Below, in pieces: positions 1,927 through 53,698 of a stretch of DNA of 64,000 nucleotides. The stretch is taken from IMG/VR virus record IMGVR_UViG_3300014204_000122, positions 72,570 through 136,569 of that record. One strand, given 5' to 3'. Each line of letters opens with the position of its first letter. Within the stretch, counting starts at the first letter, position 1. The position numbers and the translations under genes are program-made. Source of the DNA: a virus. Its lineage: Duplodnaviria; Caudoviricetes. The notes below the pieces were generated by a model, which made no database searches, had not been told where the DNA came from, and saw only the letters and a list, made by a program, of their open reading frames with translations.

Positions 1927-3888
1927 TTAAATGTATTTGTAAATATCATCTTCAACAGAAATTCCCCATGTTTCATCAGTAATATCGTTTGATAATTCTA
2001 TATTATTATATTCTTCATAGAACCATAATGAATATATTTGATTTTTTTTATCTTGAAATATAAAACCATAATCATAAAATACCATATCGTTATATCCTTC
2101 TTTAATATAATCTAATTCTTCAATTATTTCATAATTTTCATTTGCTTTAATAAGATTATAATTTTTTTCTATAAATTTTATTTTCTCTGTACTATTTGTG
2201 TTAATTACTGTTGAAAAAGGGTAAAGATTTCTGATTGCAGAATTAGTATTAGTAGGACCATCATAATAAACGGTTTTAGAATCTTCATCAATTTTAACAT
2301 GATCTTCAATAAATTTATTTTTTATAATATAATTTGAATATTTATTTATAAGATATTCTTCAACTTTTTCAGATACAGTTGGAATGAGAATCCAAACTAT
2401 TTTTTTTTCTTCGTCAACTTTAATTATTTTTTCTAATCTTTCATCTAATTTAATAGGTTTAATATATTTTGAATATGCCATTTGGCTATTTTCCAAAATA
2501 GGTGTTTTATTAATATTTTTATTATAATAATCTTCTAAATTTTCTTCAGATTCAAAATATTTAATTTCACTTTTAATTGGATTAAAATTAACCATTTCTC
2601 TTCCTTTAATAATTATACCATCATATCCTAGTTTTAACATTTCAACTTCAATAGTAGTATCTTTACGAAAATCTCTTTTGTCTTTATATTTTTTTGCTAT
2701 ATTACCCCAAAACCAAATTTCCCAATCATTTAATGTATTAAAAGTTTTAGGGTTTTTAGGAATAGCACCTAATACAAAATGAATCTTACCAAAAGGTTTA
2801 GCCATTTGATGATTAGATAAACAAGCTGTATATAAACCATCTCCTAACATTGCTCCACCACCGTTAGGGACTCCTTTTTCTCTCATTCCTCTAACTGTAA
2901 CGTTTTTACGTTTCCATTTTAAATAATCAGAGTGAACATCTTCTAATAAATTTTCTTTTTTTAATAAAGATGTATGTTGTATAGTTTTTTCTCCATCTTT
3001 AGTAGGTTCAGAATAAACTATTTTTTCAGGATTAACTACATATGTTTGATCTTTAAACATATCAATATATTTTTGTCCCTTTCCAGATTTTAAATAAGCT
3101 ATTGTCGAATGTGGATTGTAATCAGGATAATCAGAATGATAAGGAAAAATATCTGTTAATTTTTTATTTATTGAATTTAAAATATTTTTTTTAGAATTAT
3201 GCTCTCTACATTCAAATTTTAAAACATCATATTCTTTATTCTCAAAACATGATATATTATATAATTCTAAAGCTGGTATTTTAAATTCCAAAATACAATC
3301 AATTATATCTTTATAACTTTCTATTTCTTTTGTTTTAAATCCATATAATAATGTTGTGTGTGGTTCAGTCTCTAAACCAAAAGTAGGTTTGTCATATATA
3401 TCTTCAGTATTTATTTTTTTTTGAATTTCTTTTAATTTATCAAAATTAAAAAACAACATAGCACATCCATATTCATATTTAGGCTTAGTTCTTTCTTCTA
3501 ATAATACTTTTTTATTAGTAAGTTTCTCTAACATTTCTACCATTGTTTTAACCTTTGATGGATTAAAACTTGATTTCACAGTGGTTGATACTAAATCTTT
3601 TCTAATATATCTTTGTATTTTATCATCTAGATAATTTTTATCTTGTTTAGAAATTTTCTTTTTAATTATTCTTTCTATAATGTCAATAAGAGTTCTAGAA
3701 TATGTTGAAGGTGAAATATTTCCTTTATTTACTCCAGTTCCTAATTTAATCATCTTGTTTTGATCTTTTTCATTTAAATTCCCAATAGTATTAGCTTCTG
3801 GTATAGTTCTTTTAACGGCAGCCATTGCTATATTTAATATAACAAATCCTTGGTTATCATCTGAGGGAATAGGATAATTAATATTCAT
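1927..3888 (-). CDS. Multidomain protein with Acb1/T4 57B-like 2H phosphoesterase, possible ART-like domain and internal tag copy
   Basis: YGCAML...EPHTTLLYG...YNPHSTIAY (two HxT/S motifs); RG...GDGLY...GYDGII..REMV segment; LEKLTNKKVLLEE before the 2H domain. Confidence 0.75.
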   Translation of the reverse strand: MNINYPIPSDDNQGFVILNIAMAAVKRTIPEANTIGNLNEKDQNKMIKLGTGVNKGNISPSTYSRTLIDIIERIIKKKISKQDKNYLDDKIQRYIRKDLVSTTVKSSFNPSKVKTMVEMLEKLTNKKVLLEERTKPKYEYGCAMLFFNFDKLKEIQKKINTEDIYDKPTFGLETEPHTTLLYGFKTKEIESYKDIIDCILEFKIPALELYNISCFENKEYDVLKFECREHNSKKNILNSINKKLTDIFPYHSDYPDYNPHSTIAYLKSGKGQKYIDMFKDQTYVVNPEKIVYSEPTKDGEKTIQHTSLLKKENLLEDVHSDYLKWKRKNVTVRGMREKGVPNGGGAMLGDGLYTACLSNHQMAKPFGKIHFVLGAIPKNPKTFNTLNDWEIWFWGNIAKKYKDKRDFRKDTTIEVEMLKLGYDGIIIKGREMVNFNPIKSEIKYFESEENLEDYYNKNINKTPILENSQMAYSKYIKPIKLDERLEKIIKVDEEKKIVWILIPTVSEKVEEYLINKYSNYIIKNKFIEDHVKIDEDSKTVYYDGPTNTNSAIRNLYPFSTVINTNSTEKIKFIEKNYNLIKANENYEIIEELDYIKEGYNDMVFYDYGFIFQDKKNQIYSLWFYEEYNNIELSNDITDETWGISVEDDIYKYI

Positions 3889-5121: not shown

Positions 5122-5204
5122 GTTCCCACGACAGGATTCAAACCCGCATTTTCAACATTCAATTACGTATACTTGATCCGTATTCAAGCTCGGTTACGTA
5201 GGAA
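5122..5204 (-). ncRNA. Non-canonical tRNA-like element (8-bp acceptor, T arm, no D stem, hairpin with ACG loop)
   Basis: TTCCTACG/CGTGGGAA acceptor, GCGGG-TTTGAAT-CCTGT T arm, CTTGA-ATACGGA-TCAAG hairpin. Confidence 0.55.
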
Positions 5205-5217
5205 TAAAAATAAAAAG

Positions 5218-5313
5218 TCTAGTGTGAGGGATTCGAACCCTCGGATAATACTACCTGTGTACCACCGCACGCTTCCAAGACGTGCATCTTAAACCTAACT
5301 CGACCAACACTAG
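5218..5313 (-). tRNA. tRNA-Pro(TGG) with long variable arm
   Basis: C1-G72, A73; CACGT-CTTGGAA-GCGTG anticodon arm; long variable region. Confidence 0.8.
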
Positions 5314-5323
5314 TTATAATTAG

Positions 5324-5395
5324 TAGCCCTAGATTGATTCGAACAATCATCAAGTCATTCGTAGTGACCCATTCTATCCGTTGAACTATAGAGCC
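5324..5395 (-). tRNA. tRNA-Arg(ACG)
   Basis: Cloverleaf; GGTCA-CTACGAA-TGACT. Confidence 0.92.
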
Positions 5396-5404
5396 TCAAA
5401 TTTG

Positions 5405-5489
5405 CTGATTAGGTACGACTCGAACGTACAAGCTCTTTACGAGCACTTGCTTCAAAGACAAGTGTGTTTACCAATTCCACCACTAATCA
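5405..5489 (-). tRNA. tRNA-Gln(TTG) with long variable arm
   Basis: U1-A72, G73; CTTGT-CTTTGAA-GCAAG; GCTC-GTAAA-GAGC variable arm; Leu-like D arm. Confidence 0.85.
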
Positions 5490-5495
5490 ATATTG

Positions 5496-5568
5496 TATCC
5501 ATAGATGGGTTTGAACCACCGACCGCCAAGGTATAAGCTTGGAACTCTGACCACTGAGTTATATGGAT
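5496..5568 (-). tRNA. tRNA-Ile(TAT)
   Basis: CCAAG-CTTATAC-CTTGG. Confidence 0.9.
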
Positions 5569-5591
5569 ATATTTCAATTAACTTAATCTAG

Positions 5592-5666
5592 TCGAGGTGG
5601 TGAGATTTGAACTCACGAACCGACGTTTCCAGGACGCCGTTGTATAACCATCTGCATAACACCTCG
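5592..5666 (-). tRNA. tRNA-Pro(TGG), atypical (C33, weak D arm)
   Basis: C1-G72, A73; GGCGT-CCTGGAA-ACGTC. Confidence 0.75.
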
Positions 5667-5679
5667 TTATATTTTTTTG

Positions 5680-5750
5680 TTGTCTTACAAGGATTCGAAC
5701 CTTGAATACCTGGATCAAAACCAGATGTGTTACCATTACACTATAAGACA
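5680..5750 (-). tRNA. tRNA-Gln(TTG)
   Basis: TCTGG-TTTTGAT-CCAGG; U1-A72. Confidence 0.92.
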
Positions 5751-5822
5751 ATATATTTTAAAATCTAATTCTATGTTTCTCTGTCTATCGATCCTTTAAA
5801 TTAGTAACGGTCTCCTGTATCG

Positions 5823-5898
5823 TCTAGGTAGTGAAATTTGAATTCACGTGCTCTGCATCCCAAATGCAGCGAGATAAACCTGACTCCTCTATACCTAG
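5823..5898 (-). tRNA. tRNA-Pro(TGG)
   Basis: CTGCA-TTTGGGA-TGCAG; C1-G72. Confidence 0.9.
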
Positions 5899-5921
5899 TT
5901 ATATATTTTTAAATTTTAAGC

Positions 5922-5958
5922 AAAAAAAAATCTCAATCAAATTACTGATTGAGATTTT
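5922..5958 (-). terminator. Attenuator terminator upstream of tRNA operon 1
   Basis: AAAATCTCAATCA-GTAATT-TGATTGAGA followed by T9 on the minus strand. Confidence 0.88.
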
Positions 5959-5990
5959 CTATTAAAATATGAAATATTAACGTAAAACTT

Positions 5991-6080
5991 TTAAATTTTA
6001 ATATTCAATTTTAAACATGACTCAATCAGGCTGCTTCTGCGCGGCTGTTGAGGTATTTGTATGTTTAAAATTGCGTTCAT
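5991..6080 (-). CDS. Attenuator leader peptide 1, MNAILNIQIPQQPRRSSLIESCLKLNIKI (Ile-AUA/Gln/Pro/Arg-CGN sensor)
   Basis: Run ATA CAA ATA CCT CAA CAG CCG CGC; contains CTGATTGAG complementary to the terminator 5' arm CTCAATCAG. Confidence 0.85.
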   Translation of the reverse strand: MNAILNIQIPQQPRRSSLIESCLKLNIKI

Positions 6081-6094
6081 TTTGTTTATTTTAT

Positions 6095-6193
6095 TTTTAA
6101 ATATTACTTTTTTATTTATTTATTATTAATATAAGAAATTATTTTTGTTTTATTTCTATTTTGATACCCTAAAGATATATTTTTTTATAATAC
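6095..6193 (-). promoter_or_regulatory. Promoter cassette of tRNA operon 1 (99-bp near-identical repeat of 9555-9653)
   Basis: 3 mismatches to 9555-9653; contains TATCTTTAG, TTCTTATATTAATAAT and TATTTAAA boxes also upstream of operon 3. Confidence 0.75.
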
Positions 6194-6197
6194 AAAC

Positions 6198-6611
6198 CTA
6201 ATATTTTGAATTATTTTTTAACACTATACCATTTTTATAAACTTCATACTCATAAAAACGAGGTAATCCATATTTTAGAGCTTCTGCTAAATCTGTCCAT
6301 TCTTCTTCAGAAACCATATCATCTGGATAAGAAAAATTACCTTTTAAATGAGCAGGTATAGGTCTTAAATTAACTAAAACTAATTCACCTTCACCACCTT
6401 TAACATCTATTGCTAATTCTTCTGTGCTCCAATCTGATTTAGTATCGATAATTTCTTCAACTCTATCACGAATTTCTTTTTGTGTATAAATTTTAGGTGT
6501 TGGAGGATCAGGAAACATATCTTCTTTCAAAATTATTTTTTTTCCTGAAATTCTTTGTAATTTTTCAGTAAGCAATTGTATCTCTAATTGTTTTTCCTTT
6601 TCTGATTTCAT
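6198..6611 (-). CDS. Tagged hypothetical protein (MKSEKEKQLE leader)
   Basis: N-terminal 30-aa tag, unique C-terminus. Confidence 0.85.
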   Translation of the reverse strand: MKSEKEKQLEIQLLTEKLQRISGKKIILKEDMFPDPPTPKIYTQKEIRDRVEEIIDTKSDWSTEELAIDVKGGEGELVLVNLRPIPAHLKGNFSYPDDMVSEEEWTDLAEALKYGLPRFYEYEVYKNGIVLKNNSKY

Positions 6612-6612
6612 T

Positions 6613-6999
6613 CTATTTTTCTTCTATATCTTCAATTTCTACATCACTATTTTCAAAATCTATAGGTTCTACACTTATTTGTGGTTGAGTTTCTTCTCCC
6701 TCTAATGCTTTATCAACACTGATAATTTCACAAGAAACTATGTTAGTGAATACTTTTAATCTTTTATCAATTGCATTTTTAAGTTCTTCTTCTGAAGGTT
6801 CAAGATTATTTGTAATTATAATTTTACCTTCAATAAGAGTAGGTTCAAACCCTTCAAATAAAACAGATACTTTAAATAAATAAGTAATATTGTTCCAATA
6901 ACTATTCATTTCTGTAAAAACTACTTTCTTGCCAGATATTCTTTGAATTTTTTCTGTAAGTAATTGTATCTCTAATTGTTTTTCTTTTTCTGTTTTCAT
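6613..6999 (-). CDS. Tagged hypothetical protein
   Basis: N-terminal tag MKTEKEKQLE...VVFTE. Confidence 0.85.
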   Translation of the reverse strand: MKTEKEKQLEIQLLTEKIQRISGKKVVFTEMNSYWNNITYLFKVSVLFEGFEPTLIEGKIIITNNLEPSEEELKNAIDKRLKVFTNIVSCEIISVDKALEGEETQPQISVEPIDFENSDVEIEDIEEK

Positions 7000-7011
7000 T
7001 ATTGTTTATAG

Positions 7012-7269
7012 TTATACAGTTATTTTATTCCAAAAATCATTTAATTTTTTATCTGCACCCACTGCTAATTGAATTATGTCTTTAGATATAGGTCCTCCTA
7101 TGATTTTAGCTGATTCTATAATGGCTTTTAATTTTTCTGCTACTATTAAAATATCTTTTATATTATTAGTGGCTTCGTTTTCTTTTAAAACTACTTTCTT
7201 GCCAGATATTCTTTGGATCTTTTCAGTAAGTAATTGAATTTCTAATTGTTTTTCTTTTTCTGTTTTCAT
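7012..7269 (-). CDS. Tagged hypothetical protein
   Basis: N-terminal tag. Confidence 0.85.
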   Translation of the reverse strand: MKTEKEKQLEIQLLTEKIQRISGKKVVLKENEATNNIKDILIVAEKLKAIIESAKIIGGPISKDIIQLAVGADKKLNDFWNKITV

Positions 7270-7275
7270 TATTAA

Positions 7276-7692
7276 TTAAATACTGATTGTTTTTACTTCT
7301 TGAATATTTAGTTTTCCTGGAACTACTATAAAAGTAACATTTTCACAAGTCCATTTATCATAATCATCGAATGATTCATGTTTGCACTCTTCAATAAGCT
7401 CTAAAGCATCTTCTGATTCTTTTTTATCTATAAGAGTTAAAAAATTAAGTAAGGCAATTTTTCTATTGATTCCTTTTACATAACTTATTTCTGAAACGTC
7501 TGCATTTCCTGAATTAGATTGTGAATAAACAGTAAATATTTTTTCTTCTTCTTGAGGTTCTCCTGGTTCCATAAGTTCTTCGATAATATCTTTGTCTTCA
7601 CTTTCTGTAAAAACCACTTTCTTGCCAGATATTCTTTGAATTTTTTCTGTAAGTAATTGTATCTCTAATTGTTTTTCTTTTTCTGATTTCAT
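7276..7692 (-). CDS. Tagged hypothetical protein
   Basis: N-terminal tag. Confidence 0.85.
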   Translation of the reverse strand: MKSEKEKQLEIQLLTEKIQRISGKKVVFTESEDKDIIEELMEPGEPQEEEKIFTVYSQSNSGNADVSEISYVKGINRKIALLNFLTLIDKKESEDALELIEECKHESFDDYDKWTCENVTFIVVPGKLNIQEVKTISI

Positions 7693-7727
7693 TTTATTTA
7701 TATTTTAATTATTTACTTTAAATATAA

Positions 7728-8351
7728 TTAATTTGGTTTTCCTACTAAAATTTTATAATGTTTTTCACCTGCAATGTCTCTTAAATACCAGCCTTCTTTT
7801 ATATTAGATCCTTTAGGATTCTCTCCAACCCATGTTACTTTCTTTCCTAATACTTGTTCTACTTCTTGTTGATTGTTTATAATAGGTACATTATATCTTT
7901 CTAGAACTTTCATTATTCTATTATCAACTTCACAATAAAAACCTTGATTCTTTACTTTATTTGCAGCTCTTTCAAAATAAGATATAATAGAAGCTCTTGC
8001 TCCATCGTGTCCTACTCCTACTAATTTAATACCGTGTTTAGTATTTTTTCCAAAATATAATACATCTATATCAGGATCTTGATCTATATCTACTACTTCT
8101 ACATAAGAAAAATCATCATTTGATAAAATATCATTTGTTGACTTTATATTACTATGACCTCCAATTTGAGAATATGCTATATTAATAAGTTCAAGAAATT
8201 CATCTACTAGTTCTGGGTGAGATTTTATATTGATTTTCTCCCACTCATGTTTTTTTAATCCTAATTTTGATGATTCTTTTTCTATAAGAATGACTTTGCT
8301 TTTAGAAATTTTTTCTAATTTTTCAATTAATAATTGTAAAATAGGTTTCAT
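7728..8351 (-). CDS. Hypothetical protein with degenerate tag
   Basis: Starts MKPILQLLIEKLEKISKSKVILIE. Confidence 0.8.
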   Translation of the reverse strand: MKPILQLLIEKLEKISKSKVILIEKESSKLGLKKHEWEKINIKSHPELVDEFLELINIAYSQIGGHSNIKSTNDILSNDDFSYVEVVDIDQDPDIDVLYFGKNTKHGIKLVGVGHDGARASIISYFERAANKVKNQGFYCEVDNRIMKVLERYNVPIINNQQEVEQVLGKKVTWVGENPKGSNIKEGWYLRDIAGEKHYKILVGKPN

Positions 8352-9390: not shown

Positions 9391-9430
9391 AAAAAAAACC
9401 CTTGATCAATTTATTTAGATCAAGGGTTTT
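9391..9430 (-). terminator. Attenuator terminator upstream of tRNA operon 2
   Basis: AAAACCCTTGATC-loop-GATCAAGGG followed by T8. Confidence 0.88.
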
Positions 9431-9457
9431 TAATATTAACTTTTAAAATTATAGAAA

Positions 9458-9550
9458 TTATCTTTTCGTTAAATCATACCTTGATCCACATCTGCTACTT
9501 GATAACAGGTGTAAATGCGATAACAACGATATGATAACTATTTTTTTCAT
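9458..9550 (-). CDS. Attenuator leader peptide 2, MKKIVIISLLSHLHLLSSSRCGSRYDLTKR (Ser/Leu/His sensor)
   Basis: 12 consecutive Ser/Leu/His codons; GGATCAAGG pairs with the terminator 5' arm CCTTGATC. Confidence 0.88.
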   Translation of the reverse strand: MKKIVIISLLSHLHLLSSSRCGSRYDLTKR

Positions 9551-45600: not shown

Positions 45601-46944
45601 ATGAGGGAAGAAATCCAAAATATTTTAGATAAAGATAAACTATATAATTTAACGAGAAAAAATTATTTAGAAAAAAACTATAAAACAATTTATGATAATT
45701 TATATATGTTTAAAAATATATATTATTTTAATATAGAATTACCCTTTGCCCAATTAGTTTATCTTTATTCTTACGATTTAAAAGAATTACCTGTTTGCTT
45801 AAAGTGTAATAGTAATAAGCTTACTTTTGTATCTTTTTCGCAAGGATATAAAAAATATTGCTCTAAAAAATGCTCAAACAATCACCAAGAAAGAATAGAT
45901 AAGCGTAACCAAACTATTTTAAAAAAATATGGCGTTAAAAACATATCTCAATCTGAAATAATAAAAGAGAAAAAGAGAAAAAATTCTATAGAAAAACATG
46001 GAGTAGATAGTCCGTTAAAATTAAAAGAAATAAGGGATAAATGTGAAGCAACTTGTGTTCTAAAATATGGAGATTATAATGTTTCTAAAGTAAAAGAATT
46101 ATATAATAAGCAACGAATTAAATATCAAAAAACATTAAAAGATAAATATGGAGTAGATCACATTTCTAAAGTAAAGAGTGTACAAGAAAGTAAAGAAAAA
46201 ACATATTTAAAAAATTGGGGTGTTAAAAATCCCTTTTTATCCAAAATTATACAAGATAAAAAAAATAATACAATTCAAGAAAGATATGGAGTTAATAATG
46301 TTGGAAAATTATTAGCAACTATAGATAAAAGAGAAAAAACATATTTAGAAAAGTATGGGGTTAAAAACCCTATGTTGTTATACAAACCGGTTAAAACTTC
46401 TAAAATAGAAACAAAAATTTGCAAATTAATAAATGGAGAAAAATTTAGATTTCAAGGACGTGAATATGACATTAAGGTAGGAAAAGATATATTTGAGATA
46501 GATGGAGATTATTTTCATCCAAAAGAAAAGAAAAACTTAGGTATAATGCAAATGGGTGGATTGATAAATGATTATAGAAAATATAATGCTATTGTAGGTT
46601 CTGAATATAATATTTATAAAATATATACTTCTAATCTACCAAAAAATTTAGAAGGGTTAACAATTGATTTGCTTAAACAACTAAGTTATGAACCCAATTA
46701 TCAAATAAACTATGAAGATGTTTTGATATCCAGTGATTACTTAAAAAAATACGTTAAAGAAAAAGGAGAAAATAAGTTATTTAAATATGTGTTTAAACAA
46801 TTAGTTGATATTTGTATAGAAATAGGAAAATTAAATTTGACAAAAGAAGAAATAGAAGAAAGAGTAAGATATATTTTGTTGAACAAGTTAGATTTTAGTT
46901 TCAACAATATTTTAAATAATTCTTATTTTAAAATAAATAAATAA
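45601..46944 (+). CDS. Putative free-standing homing endonuclease (KYGVxN repeats + PD-(D/E)XK)
   Basis: YCSKKC Zn motif, tandem KYGVxN repeats, EYDI...FEIDGDYFH. Confidence 0.7.
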   Translation: MREEIQNILDKDKLYNLTRKNYLEKNYKTIYDNLYMFKNIYYFNIELPFAQLVYLYSYDLKELPVCLKCNSNKLTFVSFSQGYKKYCSKKCSNNHQERIDKRNQTILKKYGVKNISQSEIIKEKKRKNSIEKHGVDSPLKLKEIRDKCEATCVLKYGDYNVSKVKELYNKQRIKYQKTLKDKYGVDHISKVKSVQESKEKTYLKNWGVKNPFLSKIIQDKKNNTIQERYGVNNVGKLLATIDKREKTYLEKYGVKNPMLLYKPVKTSKIETKICKLINGEKFRFQGREYDIKVGKDIFEIDGDYFHPKEKKNLGIMQMGGLINDYRKYNAIVGSEYNIYKIYTSNLPKNLEGLTIDLLKQLSYEPNYQINYEDVLISSDYLKKYVKEKGENKLFKYVFKQLVDICIEIGKLNLTKEEIEERVRYILLNKLDFSFNNILNNSYFKINK

Positions 46945-50191: not shown

Positions 50192-50278
50192 ATGAAAAAG
50201 TGGTATACATATAGAACAATTATGACAGCCTTTAATAAAGGGGTAGAGGATTGTGGTGTACTCGATATTCGGATTTAA
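50192..50278 (+). CDS. Attenuator leader peptide 3, MKKWYTYRTIMTAFNKGVEDCGVLDIRI (15-amino-acid sensor)
   Basis: Codons 2-21 contain K,W,Y,T,R(AGA),I(ATT),M,A,F,N,G,V,E,D,C; ATTCGGATTTAAA at the stop pairs with TTTAAACCCGAAT of the terminator. Confidence 0.88.
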   Translation: MKKWYTYRTIMTAFNKGVEDCGVLDIRI

Positions 50279-50303
50279 ACATTAATAAAGTAATTAAATA
50301 TTT

Positions 50304-50337
50304 AAACCCGAATCAGTAAAAAGTTTCGGGTTTTTTT
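50304..50337 (+). terminator. Attenuator terminator upstream of tRNA operon 3
   Basis: AAACCCGAA-loop-TTCGGG followed by T7. Confidence 0.85.
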
Positions 50338-50388: not shown

Positions 50389-50477
50389 GGTTCTGTGGTG
50401 AAAGTATCACAAGGCAGTCGATTCACAACAGTGAGGTATCTTCAGTCGTGTTACAGGTTCATATCCTGTCAGAACCA
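50389..50477 (+). ncRNA. Non-canonical tRNA-like element (acceptor, D and T arms; no standard anticodon arm)
   Basis: GGTTCTG/CAGAACC-A, GTGA-AAGTA-TCAC, ACAGG-TTCATAT-CCTGT. Confidence 0.55.
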
Positions 50478-50486
50478 CATAATATT

Positions 50487-50567
50487 GGATCAGTTGAGCA
50501 ATTGGTTGGCTCGCCTGACTGTAGATCAGGTCTGAAAGGCGTGGGGGTTCGAATCCCTCCTGATCCA
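50487..50567 (+). tRNA. tRNA-Tyr(GTA)
   Basis: CCTGA-CTGTAGA-TCAGG. Confidence 0.92.
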
Positions 50568-50841
50568 CATGATATTTTTCACTAGGTTTTGTTAATCTGA
50601 CAAAATAATAAACCTTTAAACATATTAAATAAAAAGTCAGAATAGTTTAATATGGGTTTTAAGACGGTTTAAGCGCCGATAAATTATTCATTCAGTGGAA
50701 AGTAAAGTTTAGTTGTGTAGCATTGTAATTATTTATAATGAATTAAATTTTATGGACTCCGAGATGATCATATATATAGAAAGGTATATAATTTTACAAG
50801 TAGAAGGCTTGTTATTAAAACTTATTTTTTTTAAGAAATAT

Positions 50842-50917
50842 TCCTCTGTAGCTATTAATTGGTTAGAGCGATAAATTGTTAATTTGGGGGTTGTTGGTTC
50901 GAGTCCAACTGGAGGAG
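50842..50917 (+). tRNA. tRNA-Asn(GTT), weak anticodon stem
   Basis: ATAAA-TTGTTAA-TTTGG; TCCTCTG/TGGAGGA-G. Confidence 0.8.
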
Positions 50918-50928
50918 CAAAATAAAAT

Positions 50929-51001
50929 GGATGAGTGGCGTAATTGGTAGCGCAATTGACTGTTAATCAATAGGTTATGGGATCGTACCCCATCTCATCC
51001 G
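50929..51001 (+). tRNA. tRNA-Asn(GTT)
   Basis: ATTGA-CTGTTAA-TCAAT. Confidence 0.9.
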
Positions 51002-51013
51002 CAAACAAAAAAT

Positions 51014-51088
51014 GCCTTGATAGCGCAGGTGGTCAGTTCGCGCTGGACTGAAAATCCAGAGATAGTGGTTCAACTCCACTTCAGGGCA
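51014..51088 (+). tRNA. tRNA-Phe(GAA)
   Basis: CTGGA-CTGAAAA-TCCAG. Confidence 0.9.
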
Positions 51089-51101
51089 CATAAAATAAAA
51101 C

Positions 51102-51186
51102 GCACGAATAGCACGTAACTGGAAGCGTCCTTCTCTTCTAAAGAAGTGACTTTATGTTCTTGAAGGTTCGAATCCTTCTTCGTGTA
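51102..51186 (+). tRNA. tRNA-Arg(TCT) with long variable arm
   Basis: CTTCT-CTTCTAA-AGAAG. Confidence 0.82.
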
Positions 51187-51213
51187 CAATTAAAATAATA
51201 GTTATTATAAAAT

Positions 51214-51284
51214 AGATCTATGGTGTAGTGGTAACATTTTGAGCTCCAACCTCAACGTCCTGCGTTCGAATCGTAGTGGGTCTG
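51214..51284 (+). tRNA. tRNA-Trp(CCA)
   Basis: TTGAG-CTCCAAC-CTCAA. Confidence 0.88.
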
Positions 51285-51302
51285 CAAAAAAATAAAACAT
51301 AT

Positions 51303-51387
51303 GTCACGTTCGACTAGCGGTCCAGGTCGCCAGGTTTTCATCCTGGTTAGAGAAATCTTAACATCGGTTCAAATCCGATACGTGATA
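51303..51387 (+). tRNA. tRNA-Glu(TTC) with long variable arm
   Basis: CCAGG-TTTTCAT-CCTGG; TTAGAGAAATCTTAAC variable region. Confidence 0.85.
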
Positions 51388-51411
51388 CTGTAGATAAAAT
51401 AAATAAAATAA

Positions 51412-51483
51412 CACCCGTTCGACAAGTGGTTAAGTCGTCAGGTTTTCAACCTGGAGTCACGAGTTCAAATCTCGTACGGGTGA
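51412..51483 (+). tRNA. tRNA-Glu(TTC)
   Basis: TCAGG-TTTTCAA-CCTGG. Confidence 0.9.
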
Positions 51484-51489
51484 CTAAAT

Positions 51490-51561
51490 AGTTCGGTGGT
51501 ACAATGGTGGTATAACTCGTTGTCTGCGAGATGGTTAGGGGTTCAAGTCCCCTCCGAACTG
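51490..51561 (+). tRNA. tRNA-Asp(GTC)
   Basis: CTCG-TTGTCTG-CGAG; G73. Confidence 0.82.
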
Positions 51562-51686
51562 CAATAAATTAAATAAATAAATAAAAATTAAATTATAAGT
51601 AAAATGAAAAAACAAATTAAGCAAGTCAAACTTTAGAACAACACCTCTATCAAGGATACGTGTTGTAAAAATTAAAAAATTACAAT

Positions 51687-51759
51687 GCGTTCGTAGCTCA
51701 ATTGGTGGAGCACTCGACTTTTGATCGAGGGGCTGTGAGTTCAATTCTCACCGGACGTA
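51687..51759 (+). tRNA. tRNA-Lys(TTT)
   Basis: CTCGA-CTTTTGA-TCGAG. Confidence 0.9.
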
Positions 51760-51766
51760 CAAGTAT

Positions 51767-51858
51767 GCGTTTGTTCGCTTAGCCCGGTCGAAAGCACCAC
51801 TCTTTTAAAGTGGATAGTTATTATAACTACATCGTAGGTTCAAATCCTACCAGACGTA
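51767..51858 (+). tRNA. tRNA-Lys(TTT) with long variable arm
   Basis: CCACT-CTTTTAA-AGTGG; TAGTTA-TTA-TAACTA arm. Confidence 0.85.
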
Positions 51859-51869
51859 CTTAATTATAT

Positions 51870-51945
51870 AGAGGTATAGCTCAGCCCGGTTTAGAGCAAC
51901 TCTTTTACACAGAGAAGGTCGTTGGTTCGAATCCAGCTATCTCTA
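51870..51945 (+). tRNA. tRNA-Val(TAC)
   Basis: CTCT-TTTACAC-AGAG. Confidence 0.9.
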
Positions 51946-51958
51946 CAAAAAAATAAAT

Positions 51959-52030
51959 GGTCTATTGGTGTTAATGGTAACATGCTACACTGTCTATGTA
52001 GTGCTTTCGGTTCGAATCCGTGATAGACCG
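51959..52030 (+). tRNA. tRNA-Asp(GTC)
   Basis: CTACA-CTGTCTA-TGTAG. Confidence 0.87.
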
Positions 52031-52040
52031 CACAATATAT

Positions 52041-52115
52041 TGGAATATAGCTCAGCCCGGTCAGAGCGCGAAACTGATACTTTCGATGTCGGGGGTTCAA
52101 ATCCCTCTATTCCAA
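52041..52115 (+). tRNA. tRNA-Ile(GAT)
   Basis: CGAAA-CTGATAC-TTTCG. Confidence 0.92.
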
Positions 52116-52193
52116 CATTTTAAAGTAATAATTAATTAAAAAAAATAAAAAAATGAAAACAATAATTGGAGGTGACAGCTTGGTCGCGATTTA

Positions 52194-52670
52194 ATGAAAG
52201 AACAAAGAATTCAACTTAAAAAGAAACAAATTGATAGTAAAAATCATAGAAAGTTACAAAAATATTCTACTAATTTTAATGAAATATTTTCTTTTTTTTT
52301 AAAAAGCTATAGAAAAGGAATTTTAACCTTTTGTGGATCAAACGTTGAAGTAGATTTTGATTATAATGAAGGAAACAGTAAGTTTTGTTTTAGAAAGTAT
52401 GATAATGGTGAATATAAGTTCCAATCTATTAAATCTAAACATCCAAATATTTTAAAATCAGTAATTATAGGAAAGAAAAGTTGGGGATTATTTTTACAAC
52501 AATGGTCAGATGGTATAGTTGATTGGAGTTTTACAGAAGAAGAAATTTTACAAGAGTTTAAAGATAATAATATAACAATTCCTGAACCTTTGTTAAAAGA
52601 TTTTCGTAATGTTATTTTAAAAAAGAAAATTAAAAGAAATGATGAATATTTAAAAAACTGGAGGTTATAA
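52194..52670 (+). CDS. Hypothetical protein embedded in tRNA operon 3
   Basis: 158-aa ORF; TAATG-coupled to a 13-aa mini-ORF at 52153. Confidence 0.7.
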   Translation: MKEQRIQLKKKQIDSKNHRKLQKYSTNFNEIFSFFLKSYRKGILTFCGSNVEVDFDYNEGNSKFCFRKYDNGEYKFQSIKSKHPNILKSVIIGKKSWGLFLQQWSDGIVDWSFTEEEILQEFKDNNITIPEPLLKDFRNVILKKKIKRNDEYLKNWRL

Positions 52671-52868
52671 ATGAAATTAAAAACATTAGAAGAAAAGGAA
52701 GATTATTTAAAACAATTAGCAAAAGAAAGAAATTATAAAAATCTTAATTTAACATTAAATCCAAATAAAAATATTACAAAAGAAATGATCATAGATGATT
52801 TAATATTTTTATTTGAATTAAAAAGAGATAAGAAAATGAAATTAATTTTTACAACTAAAGGTAAATAA
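52671..52868 (+). CDS. Small hypothetical protein
   Basis: Abuts previous ORF. Confidence 0.55.
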   Translation: MKLKTLEEKEDYLKQLAKERNYKNLNLTLNPNKNITKEMIIDDLIFLFELKRDKKMKLIFTTKGK

Positions 52869-52945
52869 TTTTTAAAGAAGTATTTGTGAACATTAACACA
52901 ATGGTAGTAAAAATGTTGATTTTCGGTAATAAGAACCGTTTTTTA

Positions 52946-53019
52946 GGAGAATTAACTCAGCTGACTAGAGTACCTACCTTGCACGTAGGAGGTCATCGGT
53001 TTGAATCCGATATTCTCCA
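52946..53019 (+). tRNA. tRNA-Ala(TGC) (A3-U70 rather than G3-U70)
   Basis: CCTAC-CTTGCAC-GTAGG; GGAGAAT/ATTCTCC-A. Confidence 0.85.
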
Positions 53020-53027
53020 CAAATAAT

Positions 53028-53099
53028 GCAAGAGTAGCTCAGGGATAGAGCGATTGATTACCAATCAATAGGTCGGGATTTTGAAACTCCTCTCTTGCT
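53028..53099 (+). tRNA. tRNA-Gly(ACC)
   Basis: ATTGA-TTACCAA-TCAAT; G1-C72, C2-G71, U73; imperfect T stem. Confidence 0.75.
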
Positions 53100-53209
53100 C
53101 AAATTTTCTCTCCCAAAACAAGATAAATAGGTAGGAGGTAGGTGTGTTAAATCTTTTAACATAAATTTTAAAGTTTTTCTTTTAATTTATCTTGTTTTTT
53201 ATTATTTTT

Positions 53210-53282
53210 GCAAAATGTAGCTTAATTGGCTAAAGCACTTGTCTTCCAAACAGGGGATGCGGATCGTACCCGACATTTTGCT
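53210..53282 (+). tRNA. tRNA-Gly(TCC), apparent 8-bp acceptor and short T stem
   Basis: CTTGT-CTTCCAA-ACAGG; GCAAAATG/CATTTTGC-T. Confidence 0.8.
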
Positions 53283-53317
53283 CATTTAGTTGTAGGATCT
53301 ATAAAACCTTCATATTT

Positions 53318-53390
53318 GCCGAAATAACACAATTGGTAGTGTAGTTGATTTGTAATCAACAGGTTAGGAGTTCAAATCTCCTTTTCGGCT
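53318..53390 (+). tRNA. tRNA-Thr(TGT)
   Basis: GTTGA-TTTGTAA-TCAAC. Confidence 0.9.
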
Positions 53391-53401
53391 CAAAATTATA
53401 T

Positions 53402-53484
53402 TGCGGTGTGCCTGAAGTTGGTATCAGTGAGGTCTCATAAACCTCTGTCGTTTGACCTCGCGGGTTCGAGTCCCGCTGCCGCAA
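53402..53484 (+). tRNA. tRNA-Met(CAT) with extended variable region
   Basis: GAGGT-CTCATAA-ACCTC. Confidence 0.8.
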
Positions 53485-53494
53485 CAAAAAATAT

Positions 53495-53568
53495 GCACAT
53501 ATGCTCGAGTGGTTTATGGGGCTGGTCTGCAAAACCAGTATTCGATGGTTCAAATCCATCTATGTGCT
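53495..53568 (+). tRNA. tRNA-Cys(GCA)
   Basis: CTGGT-CTGCAAA-ACCAG; U73. Confidence 0.9.
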
Positions 53569-53698
53569 CAAAAATATACCAATATGCTTATTTTTTCTTA
53601 TTTTATTTAAAAGATGTTTAAAATTTTTGAAGGTAATAAATAAATTCTTATTTTTAAACTATAAATATAAATGATAGAAAAGAATAAATCAAAAAAAT

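Follow-up and report, generated by a model that had tools for sequence, protein, structure and literature searches.

A leader region on the minus strand of a phage genome, hereafter unit 1, is probably a ribosome-mediated (leader-peptide) transcription attenuator that would gate read-through into the adjoining array of tRNA genes for Pro, Gln, Ile(UAU) and Arg(ACG); on the basis of the sequence and the modeled folding, a probability of roughly 0.7 is assigned to this reading. The window, i.e. the whole stretch of 64,000 nucleotides that was analysed, represents the right-hand 64 kb of the virus record (136,569 bp, 26% G+C). It codes for a portal protein, a T4-type major head protein and a tail sheath, and the phage is thus a myovirus; all its tRNA genes are located within the window in three arrays. 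The closest isolates by capsid protein belong to the Flavobacterium phage 'immuto' group (37% identity), and a host of Bacteroidota type is likely from this match. A Shine-Dalgarno-like motif precedes only 6 of the 83 long ORFs of the phage. The elements of unit 1 and of array 1 are as follows:

6081-6200, minus strand: upstream cassette of unit 1, a probable 5' UTR with a putative promoter (recognized by aligning units 1-3)
6080-5991, minus strand: predicted leader ORF of 29 codons plus TAA (ORF list)
6062-6039, minus strand: control codons 7-14 (AUA, CAA, AUA, CCU, CAA, CAG, CCG, CGC), cognate to array 1
6045-6073, minus strand: segment 1 (1a 6073-6061, 1b 6052-6045), pairing with segment 2 in the MFE and centroid folds
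6006-6029, minus strand: segment 2 (2a 6029-6021, 2b 6018-6006); 2a is the antiterminator strand
5953-5945, minus strand: segment 3, the loop-proximal 9 nt of the terminator 5' arm, perfect complement of 2a
5922-5960, minus strand: intrinsic terminator (3:4) with a 16-pair stem (5960-5925), a 4-nt loop and a nine-T run (5930-5922) (terminator scan and folding)
5217-5898, minus strand: array 1, tRNAs Pro(UGG), Gln(UUG), Pro(UGG), Ile(UAU), Gln(UUG), Arg(ACG), Pro(UGG) (ARAGORN)
5122-5203, minus strand: last element of array 1, a tRNA-like RNA that has an ACG anticodon loop but no D arm (ARAGORN with relaxed settings; parse of the anticodon loop)

In silico, unit 1 combines the structural hallmarks of a ribosome-mediated attenuator: a short ORF, a cluster of control codons, a terminator, exclusive alternative pairings and a dependence of these pairings on the position of a stalled ribosome. 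The leader begins at the first ATG downstream of a stop; its start is A-rich and lacks a Shine-Dalgarno sequence, as is usual for the genes of this phage. The outer 13-nt arms of the 1:2 hairpin (6073-6061 and 6018-6006) are perfect reverse complements, the inner arms (6052-6045, 8 nt; 6029-6021, 9 nt) pair with one bulge, and the hairpin by itself amounts to -18.6 kcal/mol. Segment 2a, CTGATTGAG (6029-6021), is also the perfect 9-bp complement of segment 3, CTCAATCAG (5953-5945), with a duplex energy of -12.8 kcal/mol; the terminator fold reaches -16.8 kcal/mol. The pairings are mutually exclusive, 2a being paired with either 1b or segment 3 and segment 3 with either 2a or segment 4. In the antiterminated fold, 2b and the spacer make up a second hairpin, and the 2a:3 helix encloses it in a domain of -16.3 kcal/mol. 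Both the terminator and the 1:2 hairpin are part of the MFE fold of the region 5915-6085, whose energy is -40.9 kcal/mol (z = -5.7); no fold of this stability was obtained from 200 dinucleotide shuffles. The first tRNA of array 1 (5898) begins 22 nt past the T-run. Because the full transcript at equilibrium favours the terminator, as in classical attenuators, the switch would have to be a kinetic one according to the folding model. The short length of the 2a:3 helix (only 9 bp) counts against the attenuator reading.

The influence of the ribosome position was modeled by folding the nascent RNA as far as the 3' end of segment 3 while a ribosome footprint of 30 nt was kept unpaired. In the absence of a ribosome, the probability of the antiterminator helix, P(2a:3), was 0.13. 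It was about 1.0 for A-site positions from codon 3 to codon 13, fell to 0 for codons 15-24 and amounted to 0.08 for a ribosome at the stop codon. At codon 14 the value depended on the footprint: it was 0.02 with the 30-nt footprint, and 0.72-1.0 if the 3' edge of the footprint was placed 10-13 nt past the first A-site base. With the boundary at codon 13 or 14, depending on the footprint size, the antitermination window ends where the run of control codons ends; the non-cognate codons 3-6 also fall inside it, which weighs against the attenuator reading, as does the following result. At codons 25-28, P(2a:3) was 0.15-0.88, i.e. a ribosome located there also frees 2a, with the consequence that default termination would need appropriate timing or the re-forming of 1b:2a behind the ribosome. 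Among 150 leader shuffles, two matched the observed sequestration of the terminator arm and one matched the contrast between the stalled ribosome and the ribosome at the stop codon. An earlier sequence-only reading had described a 1:2 / 2:3 / 3:4 architecture with an alternative pairing of segment 2 with the 5' arm of the terminator; each of these elements is found in place on the minus strand, and the antiterminator, whose competitiveness in folding with masked ribosome footprints that reading had named as a check, does prevail there with the A site at codons 3-13. Its proposal that a ribosome stalled on codons 7-14 would cause antitermination agrees with the masked folds, with the correction that the effective window comprises A-site codons 3-13 and takes in codon 14 only with a footprint 3' edge of at most 13 nt.

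The control codons correspond to the tRNA genes behind the terminator. Each of the eight codons in the run has its reader among the four anticodon species that array 1 encodes (Pro, Gln, Ile-UAU, Arg-ACG), and each of the four is represented. The array-1 codon classes make up 11.2% of the phage codons, and the run of eight is the genome maximum for array-1 cognate codons (273,134 codon positions, six frames). The codon panel is box-specific, with AUA in the absence of AUU and CGN in the absence of AGA.

Two further leader units with the same arrangement are present in the window:

9391-9550, minus strand: unit 2 (leader 9550-9458, terminator 9430-9395, T-run to 9391), ahead of array 2
9346-8416, minus strand: array 2, Ser, His and Leu tRNAs only (ARAGORN)
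50192-50337, plus strand: unit 3 (leader 50192-50278, terminator 50304-50333, T-run to 50337), ahead of array 3
50389-53569, plus strand: array 3, 15 amino-acid classes, following unit 3

A cassette of about 110 nt is common to units 1, 2 and 3; a 17-mer within it (6138-6122 in unit 1) occurs in three copies in the 136.6-kb genome, each of them upstream of a leader. The leader of unit 2 contains 12 consecutive Ser/Leu/His codons, the longest such run in the genome, and the leader of unit 3 includes an 18-codon window with all 15 array-3 classes, a composition found in 1 of the 88,095 open windows of the genome. Jointly, the three leaders cover all 20 amino acids.

Searches with the capsid protein, the cassette and a tRNA motif led to relatives that have the design but divide the tRNAs differently among their arrays. 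In the contig L119 (83% capsid identity), the homologue of leader 3 is devoid of Glu and includes Ser-AGY, and the array is devoid of a Glu tRNA and includes Ser(GCU); leader and array name the same 15 classes. The Glu tRNAs of this lineage are located in a Leu/Glu/Glu/Leu/Gln array behind a Leu/Glu/Gln-rich leader. In L125 (61% capsid identity), a Pro/Ile/Thr/Val/Glu/Asp/Ala leader stands ahead of a Pro, Glu, Asp, Pro, Ala, Ile, Val array and a Gln/Ser-AGU leader ahead of Gln, Gln and Ser(GCU); the unit L125b, of poor leader-array match (run of 2), may be degenerate. The metagenome contig L268 shares the cassette; its leader run comprises Ile-AUA, Leu-CUN, His, Pro, Ser-UCG and Arg-CGC, and its array consists of Pro, Pro, a CAU tRNA, Ser(UGA), His, Leu(UAG) and the conserved ACG tRNA-like RNA. 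A further re-partition of the classes in L223 is mirrored by its leader. The longest cognate run of each leader is the one with its own array (only 2 codons in the case of L125b), and when nine leaders were permuted over nine arrays, the true pairing alone ranked first among the 362,880 permutations. Isolated tRNAs in the contigs of the relatives are not preceded by leaders. As a separate observation, the L119 contig carries tandem leader-plus-terminator units (33 and 53 codons; 7489-7915, plus strand) ahead of one array, both in its codon classes.

The first tRNA-Pro(UGG) of array 1 (5822-5898, minus strand) possesses a distinctive sequence from the D-loop to the anticodon, which recurs exactly in 38 phage contigs of very different size (IMG/VR, L273-L310), where the tRNA with this motif is usually the first of its array. 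Many of these 38 further loci have a codon-matched leader and a terminator, e.g. Thr/Tyr/Gln/Pro/Lys/Gly leaders followed by Pro, Gln, Tyr, Thr, Gly, Gly, Lys, Lys arrays. In the folding analysis, the terminator 5' arm was switched between the stalled and the passed state of the ribosome in 10 of the 11 units first compiled and in 6 of 7 further units of unrelated phages in which the terminator hairpin could be located: the arm was sequestered with the ribosome on the control codons and released after its passage. The units of these unrelated phages are not homologous in sequence to unit 1, and the partition of the tRNAs varies from phage to phage.

These data bear on the simplest alternative, according to which no regulation exists and a constitutive terminator or insulator happens to lie behind a chance ORF or a small protein gene. 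Short ORFs and hairpins are indeed common in AT-rich genomes; against this stand the extreme position of all three leaders genome-wide, the permutation result, the rarity or absence of shuffles matching the fold and the switch of unit 1 (0/200 and 1-2/150, respectively) and the recurrence of the design in non-homologous sequence of many phages. The alternative is accordingly regarded as very unlikely. That the leader peptide is a small protein acting in trans, with the codon match being secondary, is considered extremely improbable: some leader peptides are known to act in trans, such as peTrpL (PMC7298713), but the leader peptide sequences are not conserved between units or phages, and the codon classes alone track the arrays.

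The choice of synonymous codons in unit 1 relates to another explanation. The run is biased to the rare codons CAG, CCG and CGC (P = 0.002), whose shares within their own amino acid in the phage are 6%, 3% and 1.5%, respectively; it therefore samples the preferred as well as the wobble-read codons of each tRNA. The sequence-only reading had named AUA, Gln, Pro and CGN as control codons, and each of these is matched by an anticodon species of array 1; it had further suggested that they are grouped by the dependence of their decoding on TilS, TadA and TrmD, unit 1 thus being a dedicated channel for modification-dependent codons (lysidine, inosine, m1G37) that would sense the loss of these modifications. 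According to established wobble rules, the decoding of CGC by tRNA-Arg(ACG) requires I34; this and the over-use of rare wobble-read codons speak for such a channel, as do the AUA codons of the L268 leader, which face a CAU tRNA that is maybe the lysidine-dependent Ile2. The grouping of the codons, however, is that of array membership, the classes being those of the four anticodon species of the adjoining array. The Gln, Pro, AUA and CGN codons are regrouped in L125, L151, L223, L268, L287 and L296: Gln is found together with Ser-AGY or with Leu and Glu, Pro with Glu/Asp/Ala/Ile/Val, and AUA/Pro/CGC with Leu/His/Ser; across phages, the partners are Ser, Leu, Glu, His, Trp or an aliphatic set, always according to the local array. 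Moreover, the phage's own Ile tRNA has a UAU anticodon that needs no lysidine, and units 2 and 3 obey the same rule without a common modification theme. A dedicated channel is thus not indicated and is considered distinctly unlikely; what can be retained of the proposal is a generic effect, in that whatever slows the decoding of these codons would be sensed; by its over-use of wobble-read codons unit 1 could also sense any wobble-decoding defect, including the loss of I34.

More closely related to the preferred reading is the assumption of the same attenuator with amino-acid starvation (uncharged tRNA) instead of tRNA abundance as signal. Stalling would be alike for a missing and an uncharged tRNA, and the three leaders together span 20 amino acids. 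Extra tRNA would, however, give no relief of an amino-acid shortage, and the division of the codons among the leaders follows that of the tRNA genes exactly, including its changes in the relatives, a co-partition that is to be expected only if the regulated product is what is sensed. Starvation as the signal is consequently judged to be improbable.

For the attenuator sensing the supply of its own tRNAs we infer the following course of events, in which the translation of the leader, the kinetics, the in vivo direction of the response and the physiological signal are deduced from the elements described above. Transcription would start in the dedicated promoter cassette and the leader would then be translated. 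Without a ribosome, or with fast passage of the ribosome to the stop codon, segment 1 would hold segment 2 and the 3:4 terminator would form; termination would occur 22 nt short of the first tRNA and yield a short RNA only. If the cognate aminoacyl-tRNAs of host and phage were scarce, the ribosome would be slow on codons 7-14 and cover segment 1, whereupon 2a could pair with the loop-proximal half of the terminator 5' arm and the polymerase would enter the array. Accumulation of the new tRNAs would put an end to the stalling, and termination would resume. Since the stalling would be relieved by the tRNAs themselves, the arrangement would constitute a negative feedback fitting the supply of a tRNA class to the decoding demand; units 2 and 3 would serve the remaining tRNA classes, by which all 20 amino acids would be covered. 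Only tentatively, as a reading with less probability than not by a wide measure, might the three attenuators be regarded as a complete 20-amino-acid sensor of decoding capacity that re-supplies the depleted class, with the rare codons of unit 1 also reporting wobble competence (I34, U34); in such a sensor, the depletion could result from the AT-rich codon demand of the phage, from host tRNA degradation or from host anticodon-nuclease defences.

The comparison of unit 1 with enterobacterial operons is based on established knowledge and not on sequence homology. Unit 1 works like the classical trp, his, leu, thr, ilv and pheA attenuators but is not a member of this set, as it controls no biosynthetic enzymes. 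Similar to the leaders of ilvGMEDA (Ile/Leu/Val codons) and thr (Thr/Ile codons), it has a multi-amino-acid run of regulatory codons in a short leader and exclusive 1:2, 2:3 and 3:4 pairings before an intrinsic terminator, with a stalled ribosome selecting the antiterminator. In contrast to the ilv and thr attenuators, which regulate biosynthetic enzymes, unit 1 precedes seven tRNAs and one tRNA-like RNA, its codon panel is that of the anticodon species of the array and is box-specific, and it resides in a phage whose genes are mostly devoid of Shine-Dalgarno sequences. With trpL of E. coli it shares the four-segment logic, the control codons in segment 1 and the 3:4 terminator. The stop codon of trpL, however, is positioned between segments 1 and 2, so that the terminating ribosome masks segment 2, whereas that of unit 1 lies 13 nt past segment 2 and default termination would proceed via the re-forming of 1:2. 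The pheST leader (pheM) likewise represents leader-peptide attenuation within the decoding supply chain, but controls an aminoacyl-tRNA synthetase via the codons of one amino acid instead of tRNA genes. T-box riboswitches also sense the tRNA state by a terminator/antiterminator switch before translation-related genes; unlike unit 1, they bind the uncharged tRNA directly (specifier codon and T-box motif) and have no translated leader.

Phage tRNA genes are usually seen as constitutively expressed accessories whose role is to correct codon bias or to make up for cleaved host tRNAs. A full-text literature search retrieved no account of leader-peptide attenuation of phage or cellular tRNA genes. 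If the attenuator reading is correct, phages would gauge the decoding capacity per class and make tRNAs on demand, and attenuation in the style of trp would extend to the tRNA genes themselves. The reading provides a directly testable model of the control of phage tRNA expression, and the units might find use as compact natural sensors for the speed at which particular codons are translated. The reading also supplies a rule for odd phage tRNAs, in that the leader would tell which codons the array should read (CAU tRNA and AUA in L268; D-arm-less ACG RNA and CGC).

A close homologue of unit 1 was not found by the capsid, cassette, flanking-protein and blastn searches. Isolates of the 'immuto' group contain few tRNAs and no codon-matched leader or terminator ahead of them; blastn against GenBank phages gave tRNA-sized matches only; no IMG/VR relatives were obtained for the 972-aa and 653-aa proteins next to arrays 1 and 2; searches of IMG/VR with the cassette as an exact or a degenerate pattern led mostly to chance AT-rich matches with no tRNAs nearby. 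The Rfam scan of the whole window at gathering thresholds yielded tRNA matches only, with no T-box and no other leader family; unit 1 as a T-box riboswitch was rejected on this basis. The sequence of the attenuator is invariant between landfill and freshwater metagenomes, with no variants within it. A 151-nt contig of a 2025 freshwater metagenome is identical to window positions 5869-6019; the main source of the sequence is a 2018 landfill metagenome, and the phage or a near-identical strain thus appears in two studies.

Several tRNAs of array 1 have unusual bodies, a point against the attenuator reading. Rfam matches were obtained for six of its seven tRNAs, the first Pro tRNA (5898-5822) being recognized by ARAGORN only. 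A Pro tRNA of 97 nt (5217-5313, minus strand) and a Gln tRNA of 86 nt (5404-5489, minus strand) carry long variable arms, which are unusual for these isotypes. The D-arm-less RNA at 5122-5203 has an intact acceptor stem and T arm; it is about 81% conserved in L268 (about 5360-5445, minus strand), where the acceptor strands differ from those of this phage yet stay complementary. CGC is present in the leader of both phages that bear this RNA. The CAU-anticodon tRNA of L268 is located at 6456-6531 (minus strand), and the leader of its array contains three AUA and no internal AUG; from the leader rule and from its acceptor-stem pairs C4-G69 and C5-G68, judged by tRNA identity elements, it may represent a tRNA-Ile2 that depends on lysidine instead of a tRNA-Met. 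Two elements of array 3 also deviate, and three ORF features accompany the arrays and the head genes:

53028-53099, plus strand: tRNA-Gly with anticodon ACC, A34 being unusual in a glycine tRNA (53.9 bits in Rfam; not detected by ARAGORN)
50389-50477, plus strand: first element of array 3, tRNA-like, with 37 nt replacing the 17-nt anticodon arm (Rfam, 34.6 bits)
1927-3888, minus strand: 653-aa ORF adjoining array 1, with two H-x-T/S motifs
6198-7692, minus strand: four small ORFs in succession in the interval between arrays 1 and 2, with a near-identical N-terminus of about 25 residues followed by unrelated sequence
45601-46944, plus strand: homing-endonuclease-like ORF (PHROG 3339), directly 3' of the major head protein gene

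In Pfam, the 653-aa ORF scored 24 bits for the 2'-5' RNA ligase (2H phosphoesterase) superfamily, below the cut-off of 27; it might possibly encode an RNA-end healing enzyme.
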